From the IMG/VR virus record IMGVR_UViG_2703718769_000011: 6,791 bases of DNA, one strand, 5' to 3'. Source of the DNA: a virus (Duplodnaviria > Heunggongvirae > Uroviricota > Caudoviricetes). Both the position numbers and the translations under genes were made by a program. Within the stretch, counting starts at the first letter, position 1. Each line of letters opens with the position of its first letter. Shown piece after piece: positions 219 to 6,791 of this stretch. The notes beneath the pieces were generated by a model that was not told where the DNA came from, ran no database searches, and saw nothing but the letters and a program-made list of their open reading frames with translations.

Positions 219-233
219 GTTGGAGTCACTACC
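1..233 (+). mobile_element. IS1 insertion sequence, right-hand portion (element continues upstream of the window); terminal inverted repeat about 211..233
   Basis: Positions 211..233 (atcagtaagttggagtcactacc) match the IS1 terminal inverted repeat as I recall it (ATCAATAAGTTGGAGTCATTACC) with two mismatches and the characteristic ...ACC end. The upstream sequence encodes the C-terminal part of InsB. The exact boundary at 233 is from recall of the IS1 terminus. Confidence 0.85.
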
Positions 234-1392
234 CACGCTCTACAGATGGTTCAGCTTCCACCAGGATTTCATTTTTTTGAGTATCGGATTCTGCCGTCTC
301 CACTGGAGCAGTTTGTGCTGCTGACTGCTGGAGAGCATTAGCAGAGCTCTGGTCTGTTTCTTCATGTTCAAACACGCCCTTTGTCGTCAGGTATTCGCTG
401 ATATATTTGTTCAGTGCAACGGGATCTTTGTGAATATCGATCGGACGTTCGCGAACAAGGCCAAAAATAGTCTGACGGTCATAGGCAAGTGCTTCGGGCT
501 GTTTGCGCATTGATGCTGAGATACGCTTCCAGTCTTCGCGATCCTTGTCGATAACCTCATTTGTCGCCCAGCGATGGATGGTACCGTCAATGTTTCCTGC
601 ATCCACATCACCGGGCCAGAGGGCGCAGGCCAGTTCATTGTCGAGTGTTTTCCATGTCTGTTTGTATTCGCGGCGAATGGCAACAGTGACAGCCCCGGTT
701 TTTTCAGCAGCGTTTTCAGTGTTCTGTTGGTTGACTCTGGCGCGGGCGAGATCAACAACAGACGTGTATTTTCCGGTTTCCTTGCGTTCACCTTCGCGAC
801 GTTTTTTCCAGATGCGCATCTCTGCCTGAATTTCAGGCCATTTAGCGCCAGGCTCACATTTATTCTTAACCCACCCGATGGCATGCAGTTTAAGTTCAGG
901 ATACATGGCGTTAACTTCTGGCATTTTCATCAACGCTTCAACGATATGTCCGCCGAATGTTGCCATGTCTTCCTGTAGTAATTCCTGTGCGCTAATCACC
1001 ATATCAACGGTGATGTTTTCGCATGTGTCGAATTTAACCAGGACTGCGTTCTGTACTTCAGGGGACAGCTTGTCAAAATTGACGTTCATCGGATCGGATT
1101 CGGGTTCGACCGGGACAAAGGACGCAGACTCCTCATCCCAGCGGTTTTCCTGCATATATTCGGTATCCCAGGAATCGAGGGCAGGGCGGGGTATGCCGGG
1201 TTTATCCTCGCAGACAATAAATTTATAAGCGCAGTCCTGAGCTGCCGGGAATTGCTCCAGAAATTGCCAGTGAAATTTTGCGCGTGCGCGACGCTCATCA
1301 CCGGCTTCAATGGCAGTGGCCACCGCAACAGCGCTATCTTCTTCTATGGCCTGCTCGTCAGGAATAGCAGCGCAAATAAAGATTTTATTCAT
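229..1392 (-). CDS. Hypothetical acidic protein, 387 aa as read; the 3' end is fused to IS1, so it is probably C-terminally truncated
   Basis: Long ORF with ATG at 1392..1390 preceded by GAGGT 9 nt upstream. No motif I can assign. The stop TAG (229..231) and two bases of the last codon lie inside the IS1 terminal repeat. Last gene of the minus-strand block after the DicB-like and YdfD-like genes. Confidence 0.6.
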   Translation of the reverse strand: MNKIFICAAIPDEQAIEEDSAVAVATAIEAGDERRARAKFHWQFLEQFPAAQDCAYKFIVCEDKPGIPRPALDSWDTEYMQENRWDEESASFVPVEPESDPMNVNFDKLSPEVQNAVLVKFDTCENITVDMVISAQELLQEDMATFGGHIVEALMKMPEVNAMYPELKLHAIGWVKNKCEPGAKWPEIQAEMRIWKKRREGERKETGKYTSVVDLARARVNQQNTENAAEKTGAVTVAIRREYKQTWKTLDNELACALWPGDVDAGNIDGTIHRWATNEVIDKDREDWKRISASMRKQPEALAYDRQTIFGLVRERPIDIHKDPVALNKYISEYLTTKGVFEHEETDQSSANALQQSAAQTAPVETAESDTQKNEILVEAEPSVERG

Positions 1393-1487
1393 TGTGTTTT
1401 AACCTCATTACAGATTTCAGGGTGAACGAATCCCTGCCATTGCTGGCATTTTTAATCCGTTGGTATGGCGTTAATATGGCTGGCGGG

Positions 1488-1676
1488 TTATCCAGCCGGT
1501 GTTTCGTTATTCAGGTACAGCGATACTTTTTTTACCGGGAGGCATTCACCGGGGATTTTTTGTTCGTCCCTTACCTGAATGCAGGATGACTTACTGTCAT
1601 AAATTCCGGTAATCACATTCTGCGGCTCACCCGTTATAAGAAAAACGGTCATCACCAGTGCAAATGCTGAAGTCAT
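1488..1676 (-). CDS. Small membrane protein, 62 aa, YdfD-like (Qin-prophage small lysis protein family) candidate
   Basis: Its ATG overlaps the stop of the upstream DicB-like gene in an ATGA (1673..1676), implying translational coupling. The N-terminus MTSAFALVMTVFLITG is a hydrophobic transmembrane or signal-like segment. Size and position immediately after the dicB-like gene match the dicB-ydfD arrangement; I cannot recall the YdfD sequence, so the assignment is by context and architecture. Confidence 0.5.
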   Translation of the reverse strand: MTSAFALVMTVFLITGEPQNVITGIYDSKSSCIQVRDEQKIPGECLPVKKVSLYLNNETPAG

Positions 1677-1861
1677 TGACGTTCTCCGAAAATACCAAGT
1701 TTAATAAGGGCAATTCGGGAAAGAATGGAATTATCATTGAGCAGATAAGGCTCATATTTCCGCATATTAATGGCATCCTCAGTAAACGCTTTATTACTGA
1801 GCAGAACACCAATATCAAAACAACCTTCAGACGTATTAACGTTTGGTAATAACGTTTCCAT
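1673..1861 (-). CDS. dicB: DicB-like cell division inhibitor (62 aa)
   Basis: The translation METLLPNVNTSEGCFDIGVLLSNKAFTEDAINMRKYEPYLLNDN... closely resembles my recollection of E. coli DicB (starting MKTLLPNVNTSEGCF..., 62 aa). SD GAGGA lies 7 nt upstream of the ATG. It sits downstream of a DicF-like RNA, as in the Qin dicB operon. Confidence 0.75.
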   Translation of the reverse strand: METLLPNVNTSEGCFDIGVLLSNKAFTEDAINMRKYEPYLLNDNSILSRIALIKLGIFGERQ

Positions 1862-2038
1862 TATCGCGTCCTCAACAATGAATTTTGTGATGCAGTGCCT
1901 GGTGCCTCCAGGTGACGTTAACCAGTTAACAATTAACGCCGGATTGTTAGTTGATGTCTGTTACGCAAGTAAAAGACCGCTTGTTTTAACTGTTCCGCGT
2001 GCGCATAGCCGCATTCACCGCATCACAAAATTCACTTT

Positions 2039-2077
2039 AAAAAGGGCGGATATCCATTTCCGCCGAATCACCAGAAA
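2039..2077 (-). ncRNA. dicF: DicF-like small RNA (shortened variant) ending in an intrinsic terminator
   Basis: The minus strand reads UUUCUGGUGAUUCGGCGGAAAUGGAUAUCCGCCCUUUUU. The 5' UUUCUGGUGA matches the DicF seed as I recall it, and the 3' end is a GGCGGA/UCCGCC hairpin followed by a U-run. The following ...TTTTTAAAGTGAATTTTGTGATG also resembles sequence downstream of K-12 dicF. The dicB-like ATG lies about 175 nt downstream. Boundaries are approximate. Confidence 0.5.
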
Positions 2078-2440
2078 AGTGATAACAGAGGTTGTTGTGG
2101 CTGGGGTGTCACTTAAGCGTATGGTCAACCTGACAACCCGGTGTCCTCAACGGGGGAAGGAATAACCCCGCCATACTTACCGCCGCGCCATTTCGCGGAT
2201 TACCACAACCGGAAGCGCACGATCGAATTAAATTTAACGACGACCTATACAGAGAGACGAACTTCGCCGTGCGCTTTCGTGTTGTGTGCCTGCTTTAACC
2301 ACGTCAGGCGAGGTGGACTCGTTATTCCCCAACAACAAGGATCTTGTTAATCTGGATATCCACAACAAGAATAAGAGTATTCAGAGTGATCGCTGAATTA
2401 ACGGCAGCAATGGCGGCTATTCCTTAATTACCAGGCATCA

Positions 2441-2593
2441 TTAGTCAGAGTTTCTTGCTAACCAGCGATGCGCGCCAGCTTCGGTTTTAAACGTTTTACT
2501 TTTGGTATACGTCATCGCGGTAAACGTGCCGTCCTGGTTGGGGAAGACGCCGCACACCAGAGATTCATTGTTGCCAAGATTGAGCATATCCAT
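2441..2593 (-). CDS. Small prophage protein, 50 aa (below the ORF-track size cutoff); possibly YdfA/YdaF-like, first gene of the leftward operon
   Basis: ATG at 2593..2591 is preceded by TGAGGT with a 4-nt spacer. Translation: MDMLNLGNNESLVCGVFPNQDGTFTAMTYTKSKTFKTEAGAHRWLARNSD, stop TAA at 2441..2443. The family assignment is from context only (position relative to the dicF/dicB-like genes); I cannot recall a reference sequence. Confidence 0.5.
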   Translation of the reverse strand: MDMLNLGNNESLVCGVFPNQDGTFTAMTYTKSKTFKTEAGAHRWLARNSD

Positions 2594-2782
2594 GTTGACC
2601 TCATTTACCCTTAACGCCGGGTCGCGGAACTAAAAACCTGCTGCGCTGTTATACAAAGTGTTCCCGCCGTCATGTTCATACGCCTCGGGCTGGCTACTTA
2701 ACCCCTGACCACTGCCTGGTAACTCGAAGTATTGCCCTGCGTTCTGTGGGGCGGGGTGGGTTGATGAATATAATCTACAAGT

Positions 2783-2815
2783 AAAAACTGTTTGATGTCA
2801 ACAATAAATAACTGT
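2783..2815. promoter_or_regulatory. Candidate leftward operator/promoter (OL/PL-like)
   Basis: AAAAACTGTT-TGATGTC-AACAAT (2783..2805) resembles the 3818..3846 palindrome with the same 7-bp spacing, and a further AACTGTC lies at 2809..2815. On the minus strand a perfect TTGACA (-35, 2801..2796) is followed after 18 bp by TAGATT (-10, 2777..2772), pointing at the 50-aa gene. Confidence 0.35.
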
Positions 2816-2826
2816 CATTTTGGACG

Positions 2827-2851
2827 AAGAAAACTCCCTCATCAGTGGGAG
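2827..2851 (-). terminator. Possible weak intrinsic terminator after the toxin gene
   Basis: Minus strand CTCCC-ACTGATGA-GGGAG followed by TTTTCTTC, 15 nt after the toxin stop. The stem is only 5 bp. Confidence 0.3.
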
Positions 2852-2865
2852 CAAAAGCGGTGGGC

Positions 2866-3153
2866 TTAAAGATTAGCGGGGAATTGTCGACGGGCGTGAA
2901 CCACGTTTACAATTTCAATACCTGAAGTTGTCACCCGGTACAAAATTATGTAATTGGGGTGAGCCACAATCTCGCGCAAACCTGGCACTCTGTCGCTTGG
3001 CGGATATAAATACGGATGTTCGGATAACGGCAGGACGCAAGCTCTTAAGCGTTGCCATAAGCGTTCTGCCGCATCTATGTCGAAACGGGCAATATAACTA
3101 GTTATATCATCCAGATCGGTATCTGCGCTTTCAAGCCATAACACGGGTAACAT
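2866..3153 (-). CDS. parE: ParE/RelE-family type II toxin (ParE2-like), 95 aa
   Basis: The translation MLPVLWLESADTDLDDITSYIARFDIDAAERLWQRL...EIVAHPNYIILYRVTTSGIEIVNVVHARRQ has the size and pattern of RelE/ParE plasmid-stabilisation toxins. Its ATG directly follows the antitoxin stop (TAA-ATG at 3156..3151). Confidence 0.8.
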   Translation of the reverse strand: MLPVLWLESADTDLDDITSYIARFDIDAAERLWQRLRACVLPLSEHPYLYPPSDRVPGLREIVAHPNYIILYRVTTSGIEIVNVVHARRQFPANL

Positions 3154-3345
3154 TTACTGCTCTCTCCGTTCCTTGCGAATTTTGGCAAAGCGTTCTGCCA
3201 TTCTGCGCTCAACTTCATCATGTGGAATAGCAGGACGTGGATCAGCAAGGCTTGCGGCTACTTTTGCGCGTAACCATTCGTTATAACTGTTTTCTTGCTC
3301 AACGGTTTCAAATTCAGAAACCATTGGTGAAAGGGCTGTATTCAT
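3154..3345 (-). CDS. Small antitoxin, 63 aa, PaaA2-like (ParE-associated antitoxin)
   Basis: ATG at 3345..3343 is preceded by a strong SD AAGAGGAGG with a 6-nt spacer. The ORF-track start at 3408 has no SD and would overlap the repressor stop. Translation: MNTALSPMVSEFETVEQENSYNEWLRAKVAASLADPRPAIPHDEVERRMAERFAKIRKERREQ, charged and probably disordered. It sits immediately upstream of the ParE-like toxin; the size matches the 63-aa PaaA2 of the described paaR2-paaA2-parE2 system as I recall it. Confidence 0.65.
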   Translation of the reverse strand: MNTALSPMVSEFETVEQENSYNEWLRAKVAASLADPRPAIPHDEVERRMAERFAKIRKERREQ

Positions 3346-3374
3346 GACATACCTCCTCTTACAGGTGGTAGAGA

Positions 3375-3776
3375 TTACGCTCGGTGCCCCTTTTGGGCTG
3401 CGATCCACCGAGCAACAGTTTCTTCCATTGACTTTTTCTTATTTTTTATTTCCTGAAGCATTTTTTCTTGGTCTTCATCGGGAAATGCACTAAAAGCTTG
3501 GAGCAATTCACGTTGGCGAGGGCCAATTTTCATCGTGTCAGGAGTAAAAATTTGCTCTCCCTCTTCTGGAGGTAATAAAAACCAATGTAGTGGATGCCCT
3601 GTAACCTCGACCAACTTATCTAAGCTGGAGGCTTTAGGTGTGGCTTTTCCACTGACCCATTGCTGAACAGTTTGCTGTGTCACACCGACTCTACGAGCAA
3701 GTTCAGCTTGGCTCCATCCTGTTTCTTTGAGGAGCCTGCTAATTCTGTACATAGATACTTCTAGGGCCTTCATCAT
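3375..3776 (-). CDS. HTH (XRE/cI-type) transcriptional repressor, DicA/PaaR2-like; candidate prophage immunity repressor
   Basis: N-terminal helix-turn-helix SQAELARRVGVTQQTVQQWVSG. The C-terminal part (IGPRQRELLQAFSAFPDEDQEKMLQEI) resembles the DicA C-terminal region as I recall it. Divergent from the Cro-like gene across an operator-bearing intergenic region. The start could be ATG 3776 (no SD, possibly leaderless) or the internal ATG at 3752. Confidence 0.8.
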   Translation of the reverse strand: MMKALEVSMYRISRLLKETGWSQAELARRVGVTQQTVQQWVSGKATPKASSLDKLVEVTGHPLHWFLLPPEEGEQIFTPDTMKIGPRQRELLQAFSAFPDEDQEKMLQEIKNKKKSMEETVARWIAAQKGHRA

Positions 3777-3884
3777 TATTCGATTTTACAGGTAAATACT
3801 GTTAAAAGCACCACAATAAAAAACTGTTGATCATGAACAGTTTTTTATTGTAGCCTTTATCTATGAACTTCAGAGGAGGGCAAC
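3777..3884. promoter_or_regulatory. Divergent operator/promoter region (OR-like) between the repressor and Cro-like genes
   Basis: Perfect 11-bp inverted repeat AAAAAACTGTT-GATCATG-AACAGTTTTTT at 3818..3846, plus another ACTGTT at 3798..3803. SD GAGGAGGG at 3874..3880 serves the Cro-like ATG at 3885. A minus-strand TAAAAT at 3788..3783 sits just upstream of the repressor ATG, suggesting a leaderless transcript. Confidence 0.6.
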
Positions 3885-4145
3885 ATGCTCAATAGCACCC
3901 GTGAAAAAATTAAGCAGAAATACACACAGGCTGAAATAGGACGCTATATGGGAGTAACCCAACAAACTGTTTGGCAATGGTTTAGCTTGGGTATTCCTCC
4001 CAAACAGGTAATCCCTTTATGCCAACTAATGCAGTGGGGGGTTACTCCTCACGAACTCCGACCTGATATTTATCCTAACCCAACAGACGGCTTGCCTGCT
4101 GAGTTTCAGACTAGCACACAGCCAGCGACGGGAGTTGATTCATGA
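3885..4145 (+). CDS. Cro-like HTH protein (YdaS-like), 86 aa
   Basis: HTH QAEIGRYMGVTQQTVWQWFSLG, strong SD, first gene of the rightward operon. Its stop overlaps the next start in an ATGA (4142..4145). Confidence 0.7.
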   Translation: MLNSTREKIKQKYTQAEIGRYMGVTQQTVWQWFSLGIPPKQVIPLCQLMQWGVTPHELRPDIYPNPTDGLPAEFQTSTQPATGVDS

Positions 4146-4567
4146 AAATCAAGCATGAGCACATCCGCATGGCGATGAATGCCTGGGCATATCCTGACGG
4201 TGAGAAAGTTCCCGCAGCTGAAATAGCCCGGACTTATTTCGAACTGGGGATGACGTTCCCGGAACTGTACGACGACACTCATCCTGAGGCCCTGGCTCGT
4301 AATACCCAGAAAATTTTCCGTTGGCTGGATAAAGACACCCATGATGCTGTTGAAAAAATTCAGGCTCTGTTACCGGCGATCGAAAAGGCGATGCCGCCTT
4401 TGCTGGTGGCCCGTATGCGCAGTCACAGTTCTGAGTACTACCGGGAGATTGTCGAACGGCGGGATCGGCTGGTGAAGGATGTCGACGATTTTGTTGCGTC
4501 AGCGGTCGTTTTGTATGACCAGATAAATCGCGGCGGCCCGGCAGGGAATGCTGTGGTGATGCACTAA
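4142..4567 (+). CDS. ydaT: YdaT-like protein (CII-like regulator family; historically annotated toxin YdaT), 141 aa
   Basis: The translation begins MKIKHEHI..., which matches my recollection of Rac-prophage YdaT. It is translationally coupled to the Cro-like gene and has SD GGGAG 7 nt upstream. Confidence 0.6.
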   Translation: MKIKHEHIRMAMNAWAYPDGEKVPAAEIARTYFELGMTFPELYDDTHPEALARNTQKIFRWLDKDTHDAVEKIQALLPAIEKAMPPLLVARMRSHSSEYYREIVERRDRLVKDVDDFVASAVVLYDQINRGGPAGNAVVMH

Positions 4568-4589
4568 AAGCACGGTGTTCGGGGGTTTT

Positions 4590-5558
4590 ATGAGCAGCAA
4601 GCTTCATGGTCTTGTCTGGGAAGGATGCGCCTTCACTGGCATGATCTTATCAAGGGTGGCAGTAATGGCCCGTCTTGCAGATTACAGCAATGACGAGGGG
4701 GTGTCATGGCCTGCTATGGAAACGATCCGGCGTCAGATCGGTGCCAGAAGTGAATCCACCGTGAAATCTGCGATTGCAGAACTGGCGAAAGAGGGCTGGC
4801 TGACGAAGGAAGAGCGTAAGATCGGTGGGCGTAACGTAAGCAATATCTATCGGCTTAATGTGGAAAAACTCGAAGCAGCGGCAGCGGCGGCGCGTGAGGC
4901 ATATAAACCGAAAAGAAAAATTAGCCCGGCAAAAAATGACCCGTTAACAGTTGACCCGTCAAATATTGACCCCTCAACGGTTGACCCGTCAAATTCTGAG
5001 GGGTCAACCATTGATAAAAAACAGCCGATTAGGGGGGCGATGATTGACCCCGATCCGTCAGTATTAAAACCTGATCCGTCAGATAAAAGATCTTCTTGTC
5101 CGGACGTTTCACTTCCGGACGAAAAAAAATCATCTCCGGTTGAACGCTTTCTGGATAAACACCCTGATGCGCATACGTGGAATGTGCCGAAGCGACAGTG
5201 GGGAACCCGTGATGATATTACCTGTGCGCAGTGGATCTGGGGGCGTGTTGTTGCGCTGTATGAACACGCAGCCAGTGATGATGGTGAGGTTTCTCGCCCC
5301 AGAGAGCCAAACTGGACGACATGGGCTAACGATGTCCGGATGATGCGCATGCTGGATGGCCGCAGTCACCGGCAGATTTGTGAAATGTTCAGTCGGGTGC
5401 AGCGGGATCCGTTCTGGGTAAAAAATATCATGAGTCCGGCAAAACTGCGCGAAAAATGGGATGAACTGGTCATTCGTCTTGGGCGTGGGCCTGCGCAGAG
5501 TTGCGTGAATCATATTTCTGAACCGGACACTGAAATTCCACCGGGTTTCAGGGGGTAA
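4590..5558 (+). CDS. Phage replication initiation protein (O-like): N-terminal winged-HTH domain, iteron-encoded linker, DnaT-like C-terminal tail
   Basis: The N-terminus (from the ATG at 4590, GGGGG just upstream; the ORF-track start at 4575 is a GTG) has an HTH-like region ...VSWPAMETIRRQIGARSESTVKSAIAELAKEGWL. The C-terminus ...SEPDTEIPPGFRG matches the E. coli DnaT C-terminus (...SEPDSQIPPGFRG) as I recall it. Direct repeats lie inside the coding sequence. Immediately upstream of the DnaC-like gene. Confidence 0.75.
   Translation: MSSKLHGLVWEGCAFTGMILSRVAVMARLADYSNDEGVSWPAMETIRRQIGARSESTVKSAIAELAKEGWLTKEERKIGGRNVSNIYRLNVEKLEAAAAAAREAYKPKRKISPAKNDPLTVDPSNIDPSTVDPSNSEGSTIDKKQPIRGAMIDPDPSVLKPDPSDKRSSCPDVSLPDEKKSSPVERFLDKHPDAHTWNVPKRQWGTRDDITCAQWIWGRVVALYEHAASDDGEVSRPREPNWTTWANDVRMMRMLDGRSHRQICEMFSRVQRDPFWVKNIMSPAKLREKWDELVIRLGRGPAQSCVNHISEPDTEIPPGFRG
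4936..5007. repeat. Candidate replication-origin iterons inside the O-like gene
   Basis: Four copies of TTGACCC(G/C)TCAA or its inverted form start at 4951, 4966, 4981 and 4996 (15-bp period), with an imperfect fifth at about 4937..4948. An A-rich stretch follows (5013..5022) and a more distant related copy lies at about 5044..5060. Confidence 0.6.
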
Positions 5559-5564
5559 CTGACC

Positions 5565-6317
5565 ATGAAAGATATCGCGACAGTTGCAGTTGGTGTTCTG
5601 GAACGCATCCGCAGACTGGCTCCTGAGCACGTTCCCGTGCCGTACAGTACGACGGAGGAGTGGCGCGAGTGGCAACTTGCCGAAGGCCGGAAATACTGCG
5701 AGGAGATTAACCGCCGGAATCGTCAGTTGCGGGTGGAAAAAATCCTGAACCGTTCGGGCATCCAGCCGCTGCACCGCAAATGTTCGTTCGCGAATTACCA
5801 GGTGCGGAACGACGGGCAGAAACATGCGCTGAGCCAGGCTAAATCCATCGCTGAGGAAATGATGACCGGTTATACAAACTTCGTGTTCAGCGGGAATCCG
5901 GGAACCGGAAAAAATCATCTGGCGGCGGCTGTGGGTAATCGTCTGCTGAAGGCTGGTAAATCCGTGATAGTGGTCACCGTGGCGGATGTGATGAGCGCGT
6001 TACATGCCAGCTATGACGACGGGCTGTCAGGGGAAAAATTTTTGCGTGAACTGTGCGAAGTGGACCTCCTGGTTCTTGACGAAATTGGCATCCAGCGTGA
6101 GACGAAAAACGAGCAGGTGGTACTGCACCAGATTGTTGACCGCCGGACGGCATCACTGTGCAGTGTCGGGATGCTGACAAACCTGAATCATGCCGCAATG
6201 AGCACGCTTCTTGGTGAGAGGATTATGGACAGGATGACCATGAACGGTGGTCGCTGGGTGAGTTTTAACTGGGAAAGCTGGCGTCCCAATGTCAGCCATC
6301 TGAGAGTATTGAAGTAA
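5565..6317 (+). CDS. DnaC-family helicase loader (phage-encoded DnaC paralog), 250 aa
   Basis: Walker [14 protein letters not shown] and Walker [10 protein letters not shown]. There is extended similarity to E. coli DnaC as I recall it (NRSGI.PLH..CSF.NY, ...GMLTN.N...LLGER.MDRM, ...FNW.S). SD GGGGG lies 8 nt upstream. Confidence 0.85.
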
Positions 6318-6339
6318 TTTTTATCCGGAGGAAATTTTA

Positions 6340-6791
6340 ATGGAAACCGTTTTTGACGCACTGAAAGCACTGAAAAGAGCCTCTTCACAGGTAGTGGCGG
6401 CCCGCCTTGGAATCAGCCGTGAAGATGCGGTCAACGAACTGTGGAAACTGAAGCGCCGTGGTGAAGCGGATAACAAGGGGTCGATGTGGTGGCTGATTCA
6501 GGCTGGTGAAAGTGAACCTGTGTCACAGGTACCGAAAGTGACAGCGCAAATGCTGACTGAGGCGATTGAACAACATGGCCCACAAACGGCGGATGAACTG
6601 GCACTGATGTTCGGAATTACCTCCCGCCGGGCGAATTCATCGCTGGCGATGGCAATCAGCAAAGGGCGTCTGATTCGCGTGAATCAGGGCGGTAAATTTC
6701 GTTACTGCATACCGGGCGCTGATTTACCGGCAGAGCCGGAAGCTGCATCCGTAGCGGAAACGGATGGTAAAGCCTTTCCTCAGCCAGCAGG
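6340..6791 (+). CDS. Hypothetical protein, 3'-truncated by the window end (150 codons visible, not in the ORF track)
   Basis: ATG at 6340 is preceded by SD GGAGGA (6327..6332). The frame stays open to the window end. Translation starts [43 protein letters not shown]... and has a second similar segment ([32 protein letters not shown]). Confidence 0.55.

Follow-up and report, generated by a model that had tools for sequence, protein, structure and literature searches.

The 6,791-bp stretch of DNA analysed here in full (the window; IMG/VR record IMGVR_UViG_2703718769_000011) is the early region of a lambdoid Escherichia coli prophage and encodes, at positions 4590-5558, a 322-amino-acid replication initiator related to lambda O. 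The middle of this gene, which encodes the linker between the domains of the protein, contains a contiguous array of palindromic 15-bp repeats (iterons). Judging from the sequence and its conservation, we consider it highly likely that this CP-933P/Sp12-type lambdoid prophage has as its replication origin the stretch between about 4895 and 5120, embedded in the linker-coding part of its own initiator gene. An origin of the ori-lambda kind inside the initiator gene had been proposed in a first-pass annotation made from the sequence alone, and that proposal is supported by the position of the repeats in the linker, by the homology of the C-terminal domain to that of lambda O and by co-variation of the repeats with the N-terminal domain. 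The array and its units are as follows.

4935-5009: iteron array, five contiguous 15-bp units with the conserved core TGA-N4-TCA
4936-4947 (degenerate), 4951-4962, 4966-4977, 4981-4992 and 4996-5007 (centre inverted): iteron cores

Searching the window for TTGACCCSTCAA with up to two mismatches gave seven matches, every one of them within 4936-5007, compared to an expectation of 1.09; none of 200 dinucleotide shuffles reached this count. The motif is exact at 4951, 4966 and 4981, with a two-mismatch copy at 4936 and an inverted one-mismatch copy at 4996, the centre-inverted unit at 4996-5007 reading TGAGGGGTCAA. Tandem Repeats Finder reported a period of 15 with 5.1 copies and, in addition, a period of 30 with 2.3 copies and 85% matches. 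The match count, the shuffles and the repeat finder bear out the 15-bp repeats described in the first-pass annotation. All five units display internal inverted symmetry, with the core TTGAC-N2-GTCAA or TGA-N4-TCA, and the two-unit pattern TGAN4TCAN5TGAN4TCA is unique within 25 kb of the prophage and present in no shuffle. Since the units are both palindromic and close-packed, the sequence fits a bound unit of TTGAC-N2-GTCAA or, between neighbours, the equally palindromic GTCAA-N3-TTGAC; the bases between units are somewhat better conserved than the centre within the unit. The region 4930-5130 also has a strong single-strand hairpin potential (z -3.75), which follows from the palindromic units and is therefore no independent evidence.

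Read in the initiator frame, the array corresponds to amino acids 116-140 and translates as NDPLT VDPSN IDPST VDPSN SEGST. One explanation is that it is this peptide that matters, namely a flexible linker of D/E-x-S pentapeptides under amino-acid selection, with the DNA periodicity arising from recent duplication and slippage. In keeping with this, the linker is rich in Asp, Pro, Ser and Lys, tolerates insertions and deletions of five amino acids, and conserves the D/E and S of its pentapeptides. We compared the array with its equivalents in relatives drawn from E. coli genomes and from phages of Shigella, Klebsiella, Yersinia, Citrobacter and others; in the phage collection a megablast gave no match, and a protein-mode search was used. 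Contiguous 15-bp TGA-N4-TCA units were found at the equivalent gene position in ten lineages, with N-terminal domains 53-98% identical to that of the window. The encoded pentapeptides vary, and include VDPSN, IDPST, SEGST, FDGST, SDPSK, SDASK, SDTSK and IEASK as well as FEGSK, YDASN, REQSK, PDGSK, SEPSK, SECSG and SEQSD.

Codon analysis of 33 distinct units from nine lineages revealed that G4, A5 and T10 are invariant (33/33) and that T occupies the wobble position before GA in 30 units, regardless of which of nine amino acids is encoded (S, F, I, R, N, T, P, V or Y). Ser is encoded by TCA in 28 of 32 units, compared with 12.7% of serine codons elsewhere in the same genes, and array serines are encoded only by TCA or TCG, never by the AGC or AGT that dominate elsewhere; the binomial P values for wobble T and for Ser TCA, 1e-15 and 1e-21, are indicative only. 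The information content of these two wobble positions, approximately 1.5 bits apiece, exceeds that of several first and second codon positions. In addition, Asp is GAC in the array and GAT downstream of it, the inverted unit encodes SEGST or FDGST, and phiP27 has a copy of the motif, TTTGACCCTTCAGAA, that is out of frame with the other units. Across ten E. coli alleles, diversity at third codon positions collapses exactly at the repeats, being 0.027 and 0.025 over 4905-4994 and 0.0 over 5040-5084, compared to 0.12-0.42 elsewhere. All of this argues against selection on the peptide, an explanation that we regard as very improbable. Because the wobble bases are conserved, one copy is inverted, another is out of frame and synonymous diversity collapses, the comparison instead strongly supports the view, already put forward in the first-pass annotation, that the pentapeptide repeats are a by-product of the DNA repeats.

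That annotation had also suggested comparing repeat number in related prophages. We found E. coli alleles with five, four or three units, the number shifting in exact multiples of 15 bp, and copy-number variants were additionally recovered in a scan of viral contigs that yielded 80 near-identical loci (98-100% N-domain identity). Variation in 15-bp steps would fit an array devoid of function, either a tract that evolves neutrally by slippage in the manner of a microsatellite or a junction at which gene modules recombine, and points of module exchange do lie nearby, at about 5095-5105. However, the core and the period persist across N-terminal domains that are 53-66% identical and in different host genera, and neither invariant positions nor suppressed synonymous change is expected of neutral tracts. 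We find this explanation scarcely credible, the least so of those considered here.

A further line of evidence comes from relatives that differ in one domain of the initiator. In phiNP, LLS, Kp4866-6, YeP1, phiP27 and EKP1, the N-terminal domain and the 15-bp repeats are kept and the C-terminal domains are unrelated. Initiators of the mEp460 type combine the C-terminal domain found in the window with a different N-terminal domain and with CATCGGGTCAAAATG repeats, five or six in number, that are spaced 23 bp; a scan of genome contigs gave five loci only, mostly of this N-domain type. Min27, with an N-terminal domain 38% identical to that of the window, has three GGGGTGGGGCAGGAGCTGCCC repeats (also given as GGGGCAGGAGCTGCCC) that are 21 and 24 bp apart, and the TTCCGCAGAATCGCGGAAC repeats of a Citrobacter relative are 22 bp apart. 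Among the five lineages examined, lambda included, the 15-bp spacing occurs only in the TGA-N4-TCA lineage, and the others are spaced by about two helical turns. Because the repeats change with the N-terminal domain and persist when only the C-terminal domain changes, this comparison indicates that their sequence and period track the N-terminal domain, as expected for initiator/iteron pairs. It is this co-variation that points to specificity of the iterons for the N-terminal domain of the initiator.

The array is flanked by further elements.

4895-4934: A-rich left flank of the array, the gene's second least stable 30-bp duplex, 68% A+T over 40 bp
5010-5024: in-phase terminal half-unit ATTGAT followed by an A6 run; relatives have TCTGGCAAAAAA or TCTGATAAAAA there
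5013-5022: A-run GATAAAAAAC
5043-5051: isolated half-copy ATTGACCCC, identical to 4965-4973, with a G6 run before it at 5032-5037
5052-5060 and 5073-5081: two GATCCGTCA repeats, 21 bp apart, with a third GATC at 5089-5092
5062-5091: predicted DNA unwinding region, the least stable 30-bp duplex of the gene (z 2.5)
5098-5120: inverted repeat GTCCGGA-N9-TCCGGAC, followed by an A8 run at 5122-5129

The order of elements 3' of the array, with an A-run followed by an isolated copy or half-copy with its G-run and then by GATC repeats, is common to ten lineages. A distant iteron copy at about 5044 had been reported in the first-pass annotation; it is present, but only as the half-copy at 5043-5051, and relatives have an isolated TTTGACCCGTCAGAATCTGG and a G-run at the same position. 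The GATC repeat class represented by GATCCGTCA had been missed. All ten lineages contain GATCC(G/A)(T/C)(C/A)A in two or three copies, spaced 12, 21 or 24 bp apart with A-rich spacers. In the window alone the GATC cluster is non-significant (P ~0.18), and only its conservation across lineages carries weight. Within the array Asp-Pro is without exception encoded by GAC-CC, and in the repeats downstream of it without exception by GAT-CC, including cases in which Gln replaces Ser as the following residue; this indicates that the GATC sites are maintained through synonymous codon choice. Equivalents of the conserved repeats (GATCCGTCA or GATCCRCAA) were seen in loci L014, L016, L018, L022, L023 and L105-L108. 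A link to Dam and SeqA is possible. Several of the phage relatives have an adenine methyltransferase gene one or two genes 3' of the initiator.

We scanned duplex stability over the gene with a nearest-neighbour method in 30-bp windows, a procedure that recovers the known AT-rich region of ori-lambda. The place equivalent to 5062-5091 ranks first in six of ten lineages and among the top three in the remaining four, and in all lineages the least stable duplex adjoins the repeats. Since 5062-5091 is the least stable duplex, since its place is conserved and since the scan performs correctly on lambda, we consider it the probable unwinding site, rather than the A-run at 5013-5022 that the first-pass annotation had singled out; GATAAAAAAC is indeed found there, but it is short. 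In mEp460-type genes, three 12-bp TACAGAGAATA(C/A)AA repeats lie directly 3' of the 23-bp iterons (L020 1833-1870, L021 1902-1940 and L001 3333-3370), at the least stable duplex of the gene, and these are probably the unwinding element of that lineage.

Two CCGGACG motifs and an A8 run had likewise been noted earlier. The A8 run is at 5122-5129 and both motifs are present, although the span given for them needs correcting to 5100-5106 and 5115-5121, where they form the arms of the inverted repeat at 5098-5120. This inverted repeat sits at the junction where relatives exchange C-terminal domains, and its inclusion in the origin is uncertain. DnaA boxes are not enriched in the window (17 matches to TTWTNCACA with at most one mismatch, 13.3 expected); the single perfect box, at 4859-4867, is by eye apparently not conserved at the equivalent position in SfIV. 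We also aligned the right end of the AT-rich region of lambda (AGAAAAAAGAAAAGATTATTCGTCAGAGAA; L024 641-670) with the second GATC repeat region of SfIV (AGTAAAATCAAAACATGATCCGTCAGATAA; L016 ~1919-1949), and only one of 500 shuffles aligned as well. This suggestive match may go back to a shared ancestor of the unwinding elements or be due to chance. For the window itself the corresponding alignment was matched by 107 of 500 shuffles, and we do not claim that its unwinding element is homologous to that of lambda.

The same data bear on the proposal that the repeats are regulatory protein-binding sites, serving, for instance, to autoregulate the early-right operon, to control copy number or in handcuffing, with replication starting elsewhere in the prophage. 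In favour of it, conservation and co-variation with the N-terminal domain show a target for DNA binding without showing where replication initiates, and the A+T-rich element is weak. It is countered by the position of the array, which is homologous to that of ori-lambda within a lambda O-related gene, by the least stable duplex that adjoins the repeats in each lineage, and by the absence of a second repeat array in 25 kb of prophage. Moreover, we detected no sigma-70-like promoter within 4500-5600, and one terminator-like site, at chance level. A purely regulatory role therefore seems improbable to us, and we favour an origin at this site.

The initiator and the gene that follows it contain the parts that such an origin would need.

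4590-5558, plus strand: O-like replication initiator gene, 322 amino acids from the ATG at 4590 (reading frame open from the GTG at 4575), from the list of open reading frames
4590-4889, plus strand: N-terminal helix-turn-helix domain, presumed iteron binder (Pfam HTH_36)
5196-5495, plus strand: C-terminal domain homologous to that of lambda O, presumed helicase-loader recruiter (BLASTP)
5505-5555, plus strand: tail resembling the extreme C-terminus of E. coli DnaT (..SEPDTEIPPGFRG), from a search of solved structures
5565-6317, plus strand: DnaC/IstB-like helicase loader gene (Pfam IstB_IS21, E 1.4e-19)

The protein start, MSSKL, is the RefSeq start in an identical locus, where the gene is labelled only 'helix-turn-helix domain-containing protein'. 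Along its full length the initiator matches PHROG phrog_391, 'replication initiation O-like' (E 3e-105). In Pfam, the first ~100 residues hit HTH_36 (E 2.8e-6; 27.5 bits, cut-off 25), and this domain is 64-66% identical to those of SfIV-type phage initiators with an identical repeat core. Phage_rep_O (PF04492) was not reported by Pfam at E <= 0.01, the only hits being HTH_36 and a sub-threshold DnaD_N. PHROGs 678 and 345 are matched by the N-terminal halves of both the initiator and lambda O, which suggests that the two may be remote kin. The relationship of the C-terminal domains is clear, with 41% identity over 100 amino acids between residues 203-302 and the C-terminal domain of lambda O (BLASTP, E 2e-24), and with PHROGs 2357 and 277 in common. 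AlphaFold2 run on the single initiator sequence gave a mean predicted local distance difference test (pLDDT) score of 37.8 and was not usable.

The last 17 amino acids of the initiator (VNHISEPDTEIPPGFRG) closely match the C-terminal end of DnaT, or primosomal protein I (PDB 2ru8, 6aep and 9zbt), and PHROGs 18526 and 3729 match the initiator in this tail only. The GFR(G/S/T) ending also occurs in relatives with unrelated C-terminal domains and is absent from lambda O. This tail accounts for the annotation of relatives as 'primosomal protein I'. The E. coli dnaT gene sits directly 5' of dnaC (preprimosome paper), and the initiator gene is in the same way directly 5' of the DnaC-like gene. The comparison suggests that the tail may be a common handle for the DnaB-DnaC complex; in the literature searched, the preprimosome paper included, we found nothing on a DnaT-like tail motif.

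The partner gene is DnaC/IstB-like and not of the lambda P type: its product scores 480 bits against NCBIfam NF009043 (cut-off 389) and 302 bits against the DnaC model, and belongs to PHROG phrog_50, 'DnaC-like helicase loader'. In some close relatives the initiator is followed by a DUF977 or YfdN-like gene (L011 2019-2444, L015 2005-2427, L016 2439-2933 and L017 2454-2942) and no DnaC-like gene. Because these genes take its place, the phage-encoded loader seems to be dispensable or replaceable, presumably by host DnaC.

From the repeats, their conservation at the DNA level, their co-variation with the N-terminal domain and the homologies described above, we infer the following course of initiation. 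The N-terminal helix-turn-helix of the initiator would bind the palindromic TGA-N4-TCA cores of the units at 4935-5009 and of degenerate copies at about 5043-5082, with initiator dimers occupying the palindromic cores. The resulting nucleoprotein complex would destabilise the adjacent, least stable and GATC-interleaved duplex at 5062-5091, and the lambda O-like C-terminal domain together with the DnaT-like tail would bring host DnaB to the opened DNA via the DnaC-like loader.

Several points weigh against this reading. In literature searches, no member of the family turned up with an experiment on binding or replication. The candidate A+T-rich element is only 65-68% A+T over 40 bp, with a z of ~2.5 compared to 3.3 for lambda, and the prophage may be defective, given that RefSeq marks ydaS as frameshifted in the identical locus and that the window has an upstream IS1 fragment. 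Low synonymous diversity over 90-135 bp in ten alleles could in part reflect recent recombination, and the binomial P values of the codon analysis overstate significance, since units within and between lineages are non-independent. Finally, the 15-bp spacing is out of helical phase, so that the complex must be more than a plain replica of the lambda O-some.

At 10.5 bp per turn, 15 bp is ~1.43 turns, or ~154 degrees per site, which would place successive dimers on nearly opposite faces of the helix; equivalently, half-sites alternate every 7-8 bp. A more specific and rather doubtful version of the proposal is that the 15-bp sites organise the initiation complex unlike that of lambda, as a close-packed filament on approximately straight DNA with no O-some wrapping, that the duplex opens at a GATC-repeat element and the methylation of this element (host or phage Dam, SeqA) gates firing, and that the DnaT-like tail recruits DnaB-DnaC, this last step being modelled on the presumed role of DnaT in replication restart.

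Comparison with known systems places the candidate origin closest to ori-lambda in layout and sets it apart in its details. Ori-lambda comprises four iterons, an AT-rich region and a palindrome; the N-terminal domain of O binds, and its C-terminal domain recruits P-DnaB. As in lambda, the origin is in the linker-coding middle of the initiator gene (amino acids ~116-145), sites with inverted symmetry are followed by the least stable duplex of the gene and then by an inverted repeat, the C-terminal domains are homologous and the helicase-loader gene lies directly 3'. The annotated lambda iterons start at 39034, 39054, 39078 and 39101, at amino acids 117-145 of O, and their spacing of 20, 24 and 23 bp confirms the earlier remark that the 15-bp period is shorter than that of lambda. 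In contrast to these 18-bp iterons, the window has 10-12-bp cores of unrelated sequence. The N-terminal domain is Phage_rep_O in lambda and HTH_36 here, the A+T-rich element here, with GATC repeats set between its parts, is far weaker, a DnaC/IstB-type ATPase serves as partner in place of a lambda P homologue, and the initiator has a DnaT-like tail that lambda O is without. Spacing aside, the weakness of the A+T-rich element is the chief anatomical departure from lambda.

The lineages represented by mEp460, Min27 and Citrobacter sp. Cu233 have the same gene layout (mEp460 also the same C-terminal domain), and in each the array comes right behind the DNA-binding domain, with an A-rich tract of low stability next in line; their spacing of 21-24 bp, about two helical turns, is different. 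The 13-mers of oriC and the P1 oriR are GATC-rich unwinding elements in the low-stability part, beside initiator-binding repeats, and resemble the window in having conserved GATC sites at such a place, but they differ from it in that here DnaA boxes are not enriched. Iteron-type plasmid origins, with 17-22-bp iterons in helical phase at ~21-23 bp and with DnaA boxes beside the iterons, match it in neither respect, the spacing here being 15 bp.

For lambda and the Shiga toxin (Stx) phages, iterons inside O are experimentally needed for replication, as tested with synonymous mutations among others (PMC7466680). The Stx phages 933W and P27 have six lambda-type iterons inside O, studied by electrophoretic mobility shift assay, footprinting and plasmid transformation, and synonymous changes to these iterons show that the DNA and not the peptide is functional (PMC7466680). 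As in the window family, iteron number varies among related phages and the initiator is lengthened to match; the Stx iterons differ in having the lambda-type sequence and spacing and in having been tested by experiment, whereas the window family is known from sequence comparison. In P22, gene 18 has ~20-bp repeats in four copies, and in phage L gene 18 has the 11-bp TGTCCAACGGA in six, both origins being inferred (PMC8022706). These too are lambdoid initiators with lineage-specific repeats in the coding region, short units included, but their repeat sequences differ and their partner is the DnaB-type helicase gp12, in place of the DnaC-like loader found here.

The remainder of the window supports its assignment to an immunity and replication region. 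From 234 to 6791 it is 99.985% identical to a prophage beside ompW in E. coli OkiPb01678, and the layout agrees with the immunity-replication region of CP-933P/Sp12, in which the gene following ydaT is an 'o homolog' (PMC8630535). The minus strand encodes a ParE/PaaA2 toxin-antitoxin pair and a CI-like repressor, and the plus-strand order is Cro-like YdaS, CII-like YdaT, the initiator (4590-5558) and the DnaC/IstB-like ATPase (5565-6317).

1-233: IS1 fragment, with the InsB C-terminus at 9-218
2866-3153, minus strand: ParE-family toxin
3154-3408, minus strand: PaaA2-type antitoxin
3375-3776, minus strand: CI-like helix-turn-helix repressor
3885-4145, plus strand: YdaS/Cro-like gene

The segment 2866-3776 is arranged like the paaR2-paaA2-parE2 immunity region of CP-933P (PMC8630535). 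RefSeq treats ydaS of the identical locus as a pseudogene with a frameshift (L006 11311-11584), and this otherwise identical locus is missing the IS1 fragment. There, the minus-strand gene encodes an 823-amino-acid 3'-5' exonuclease; its open reading frame in the window (229-1392) is only 387 amino acids, and IS1 has thus apparently disrupted the gene. An Rfam search of the window gave no match.

Literature searches found no paper describing the TGA-N4-TCA iteron family or its origin, and we found no record or paper that annotates an origin in the initiator gene. One of three non-chromosomal occurrences of the gene is in a 216.7-kb record labelled as a plasmid (NZ_JBVDMR010000004.1; L013), where it lies beside racR and has three units. 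Of 5426 complete E. coli genomes, 1587 (29%) carry the initiator gene, many strains that produce Shiga toxin among them, and E. coli copies of it number about 1900. Related types are found in Shigella, Klebsiella, Yersinia and Citrobacter phages. Ever since lambda, textbooks have described origins that lie within the initiator gene; what is unusual here is the 15-bp spacing together with the conserved GATC repeats. Knowing the origin and its recognition core would permit rep_origin features to be annotated, and a known origin would aid the design of incompatibility or origin-titration experiments and would help to predict which cryptic prophages are still able to replicate upon induction.

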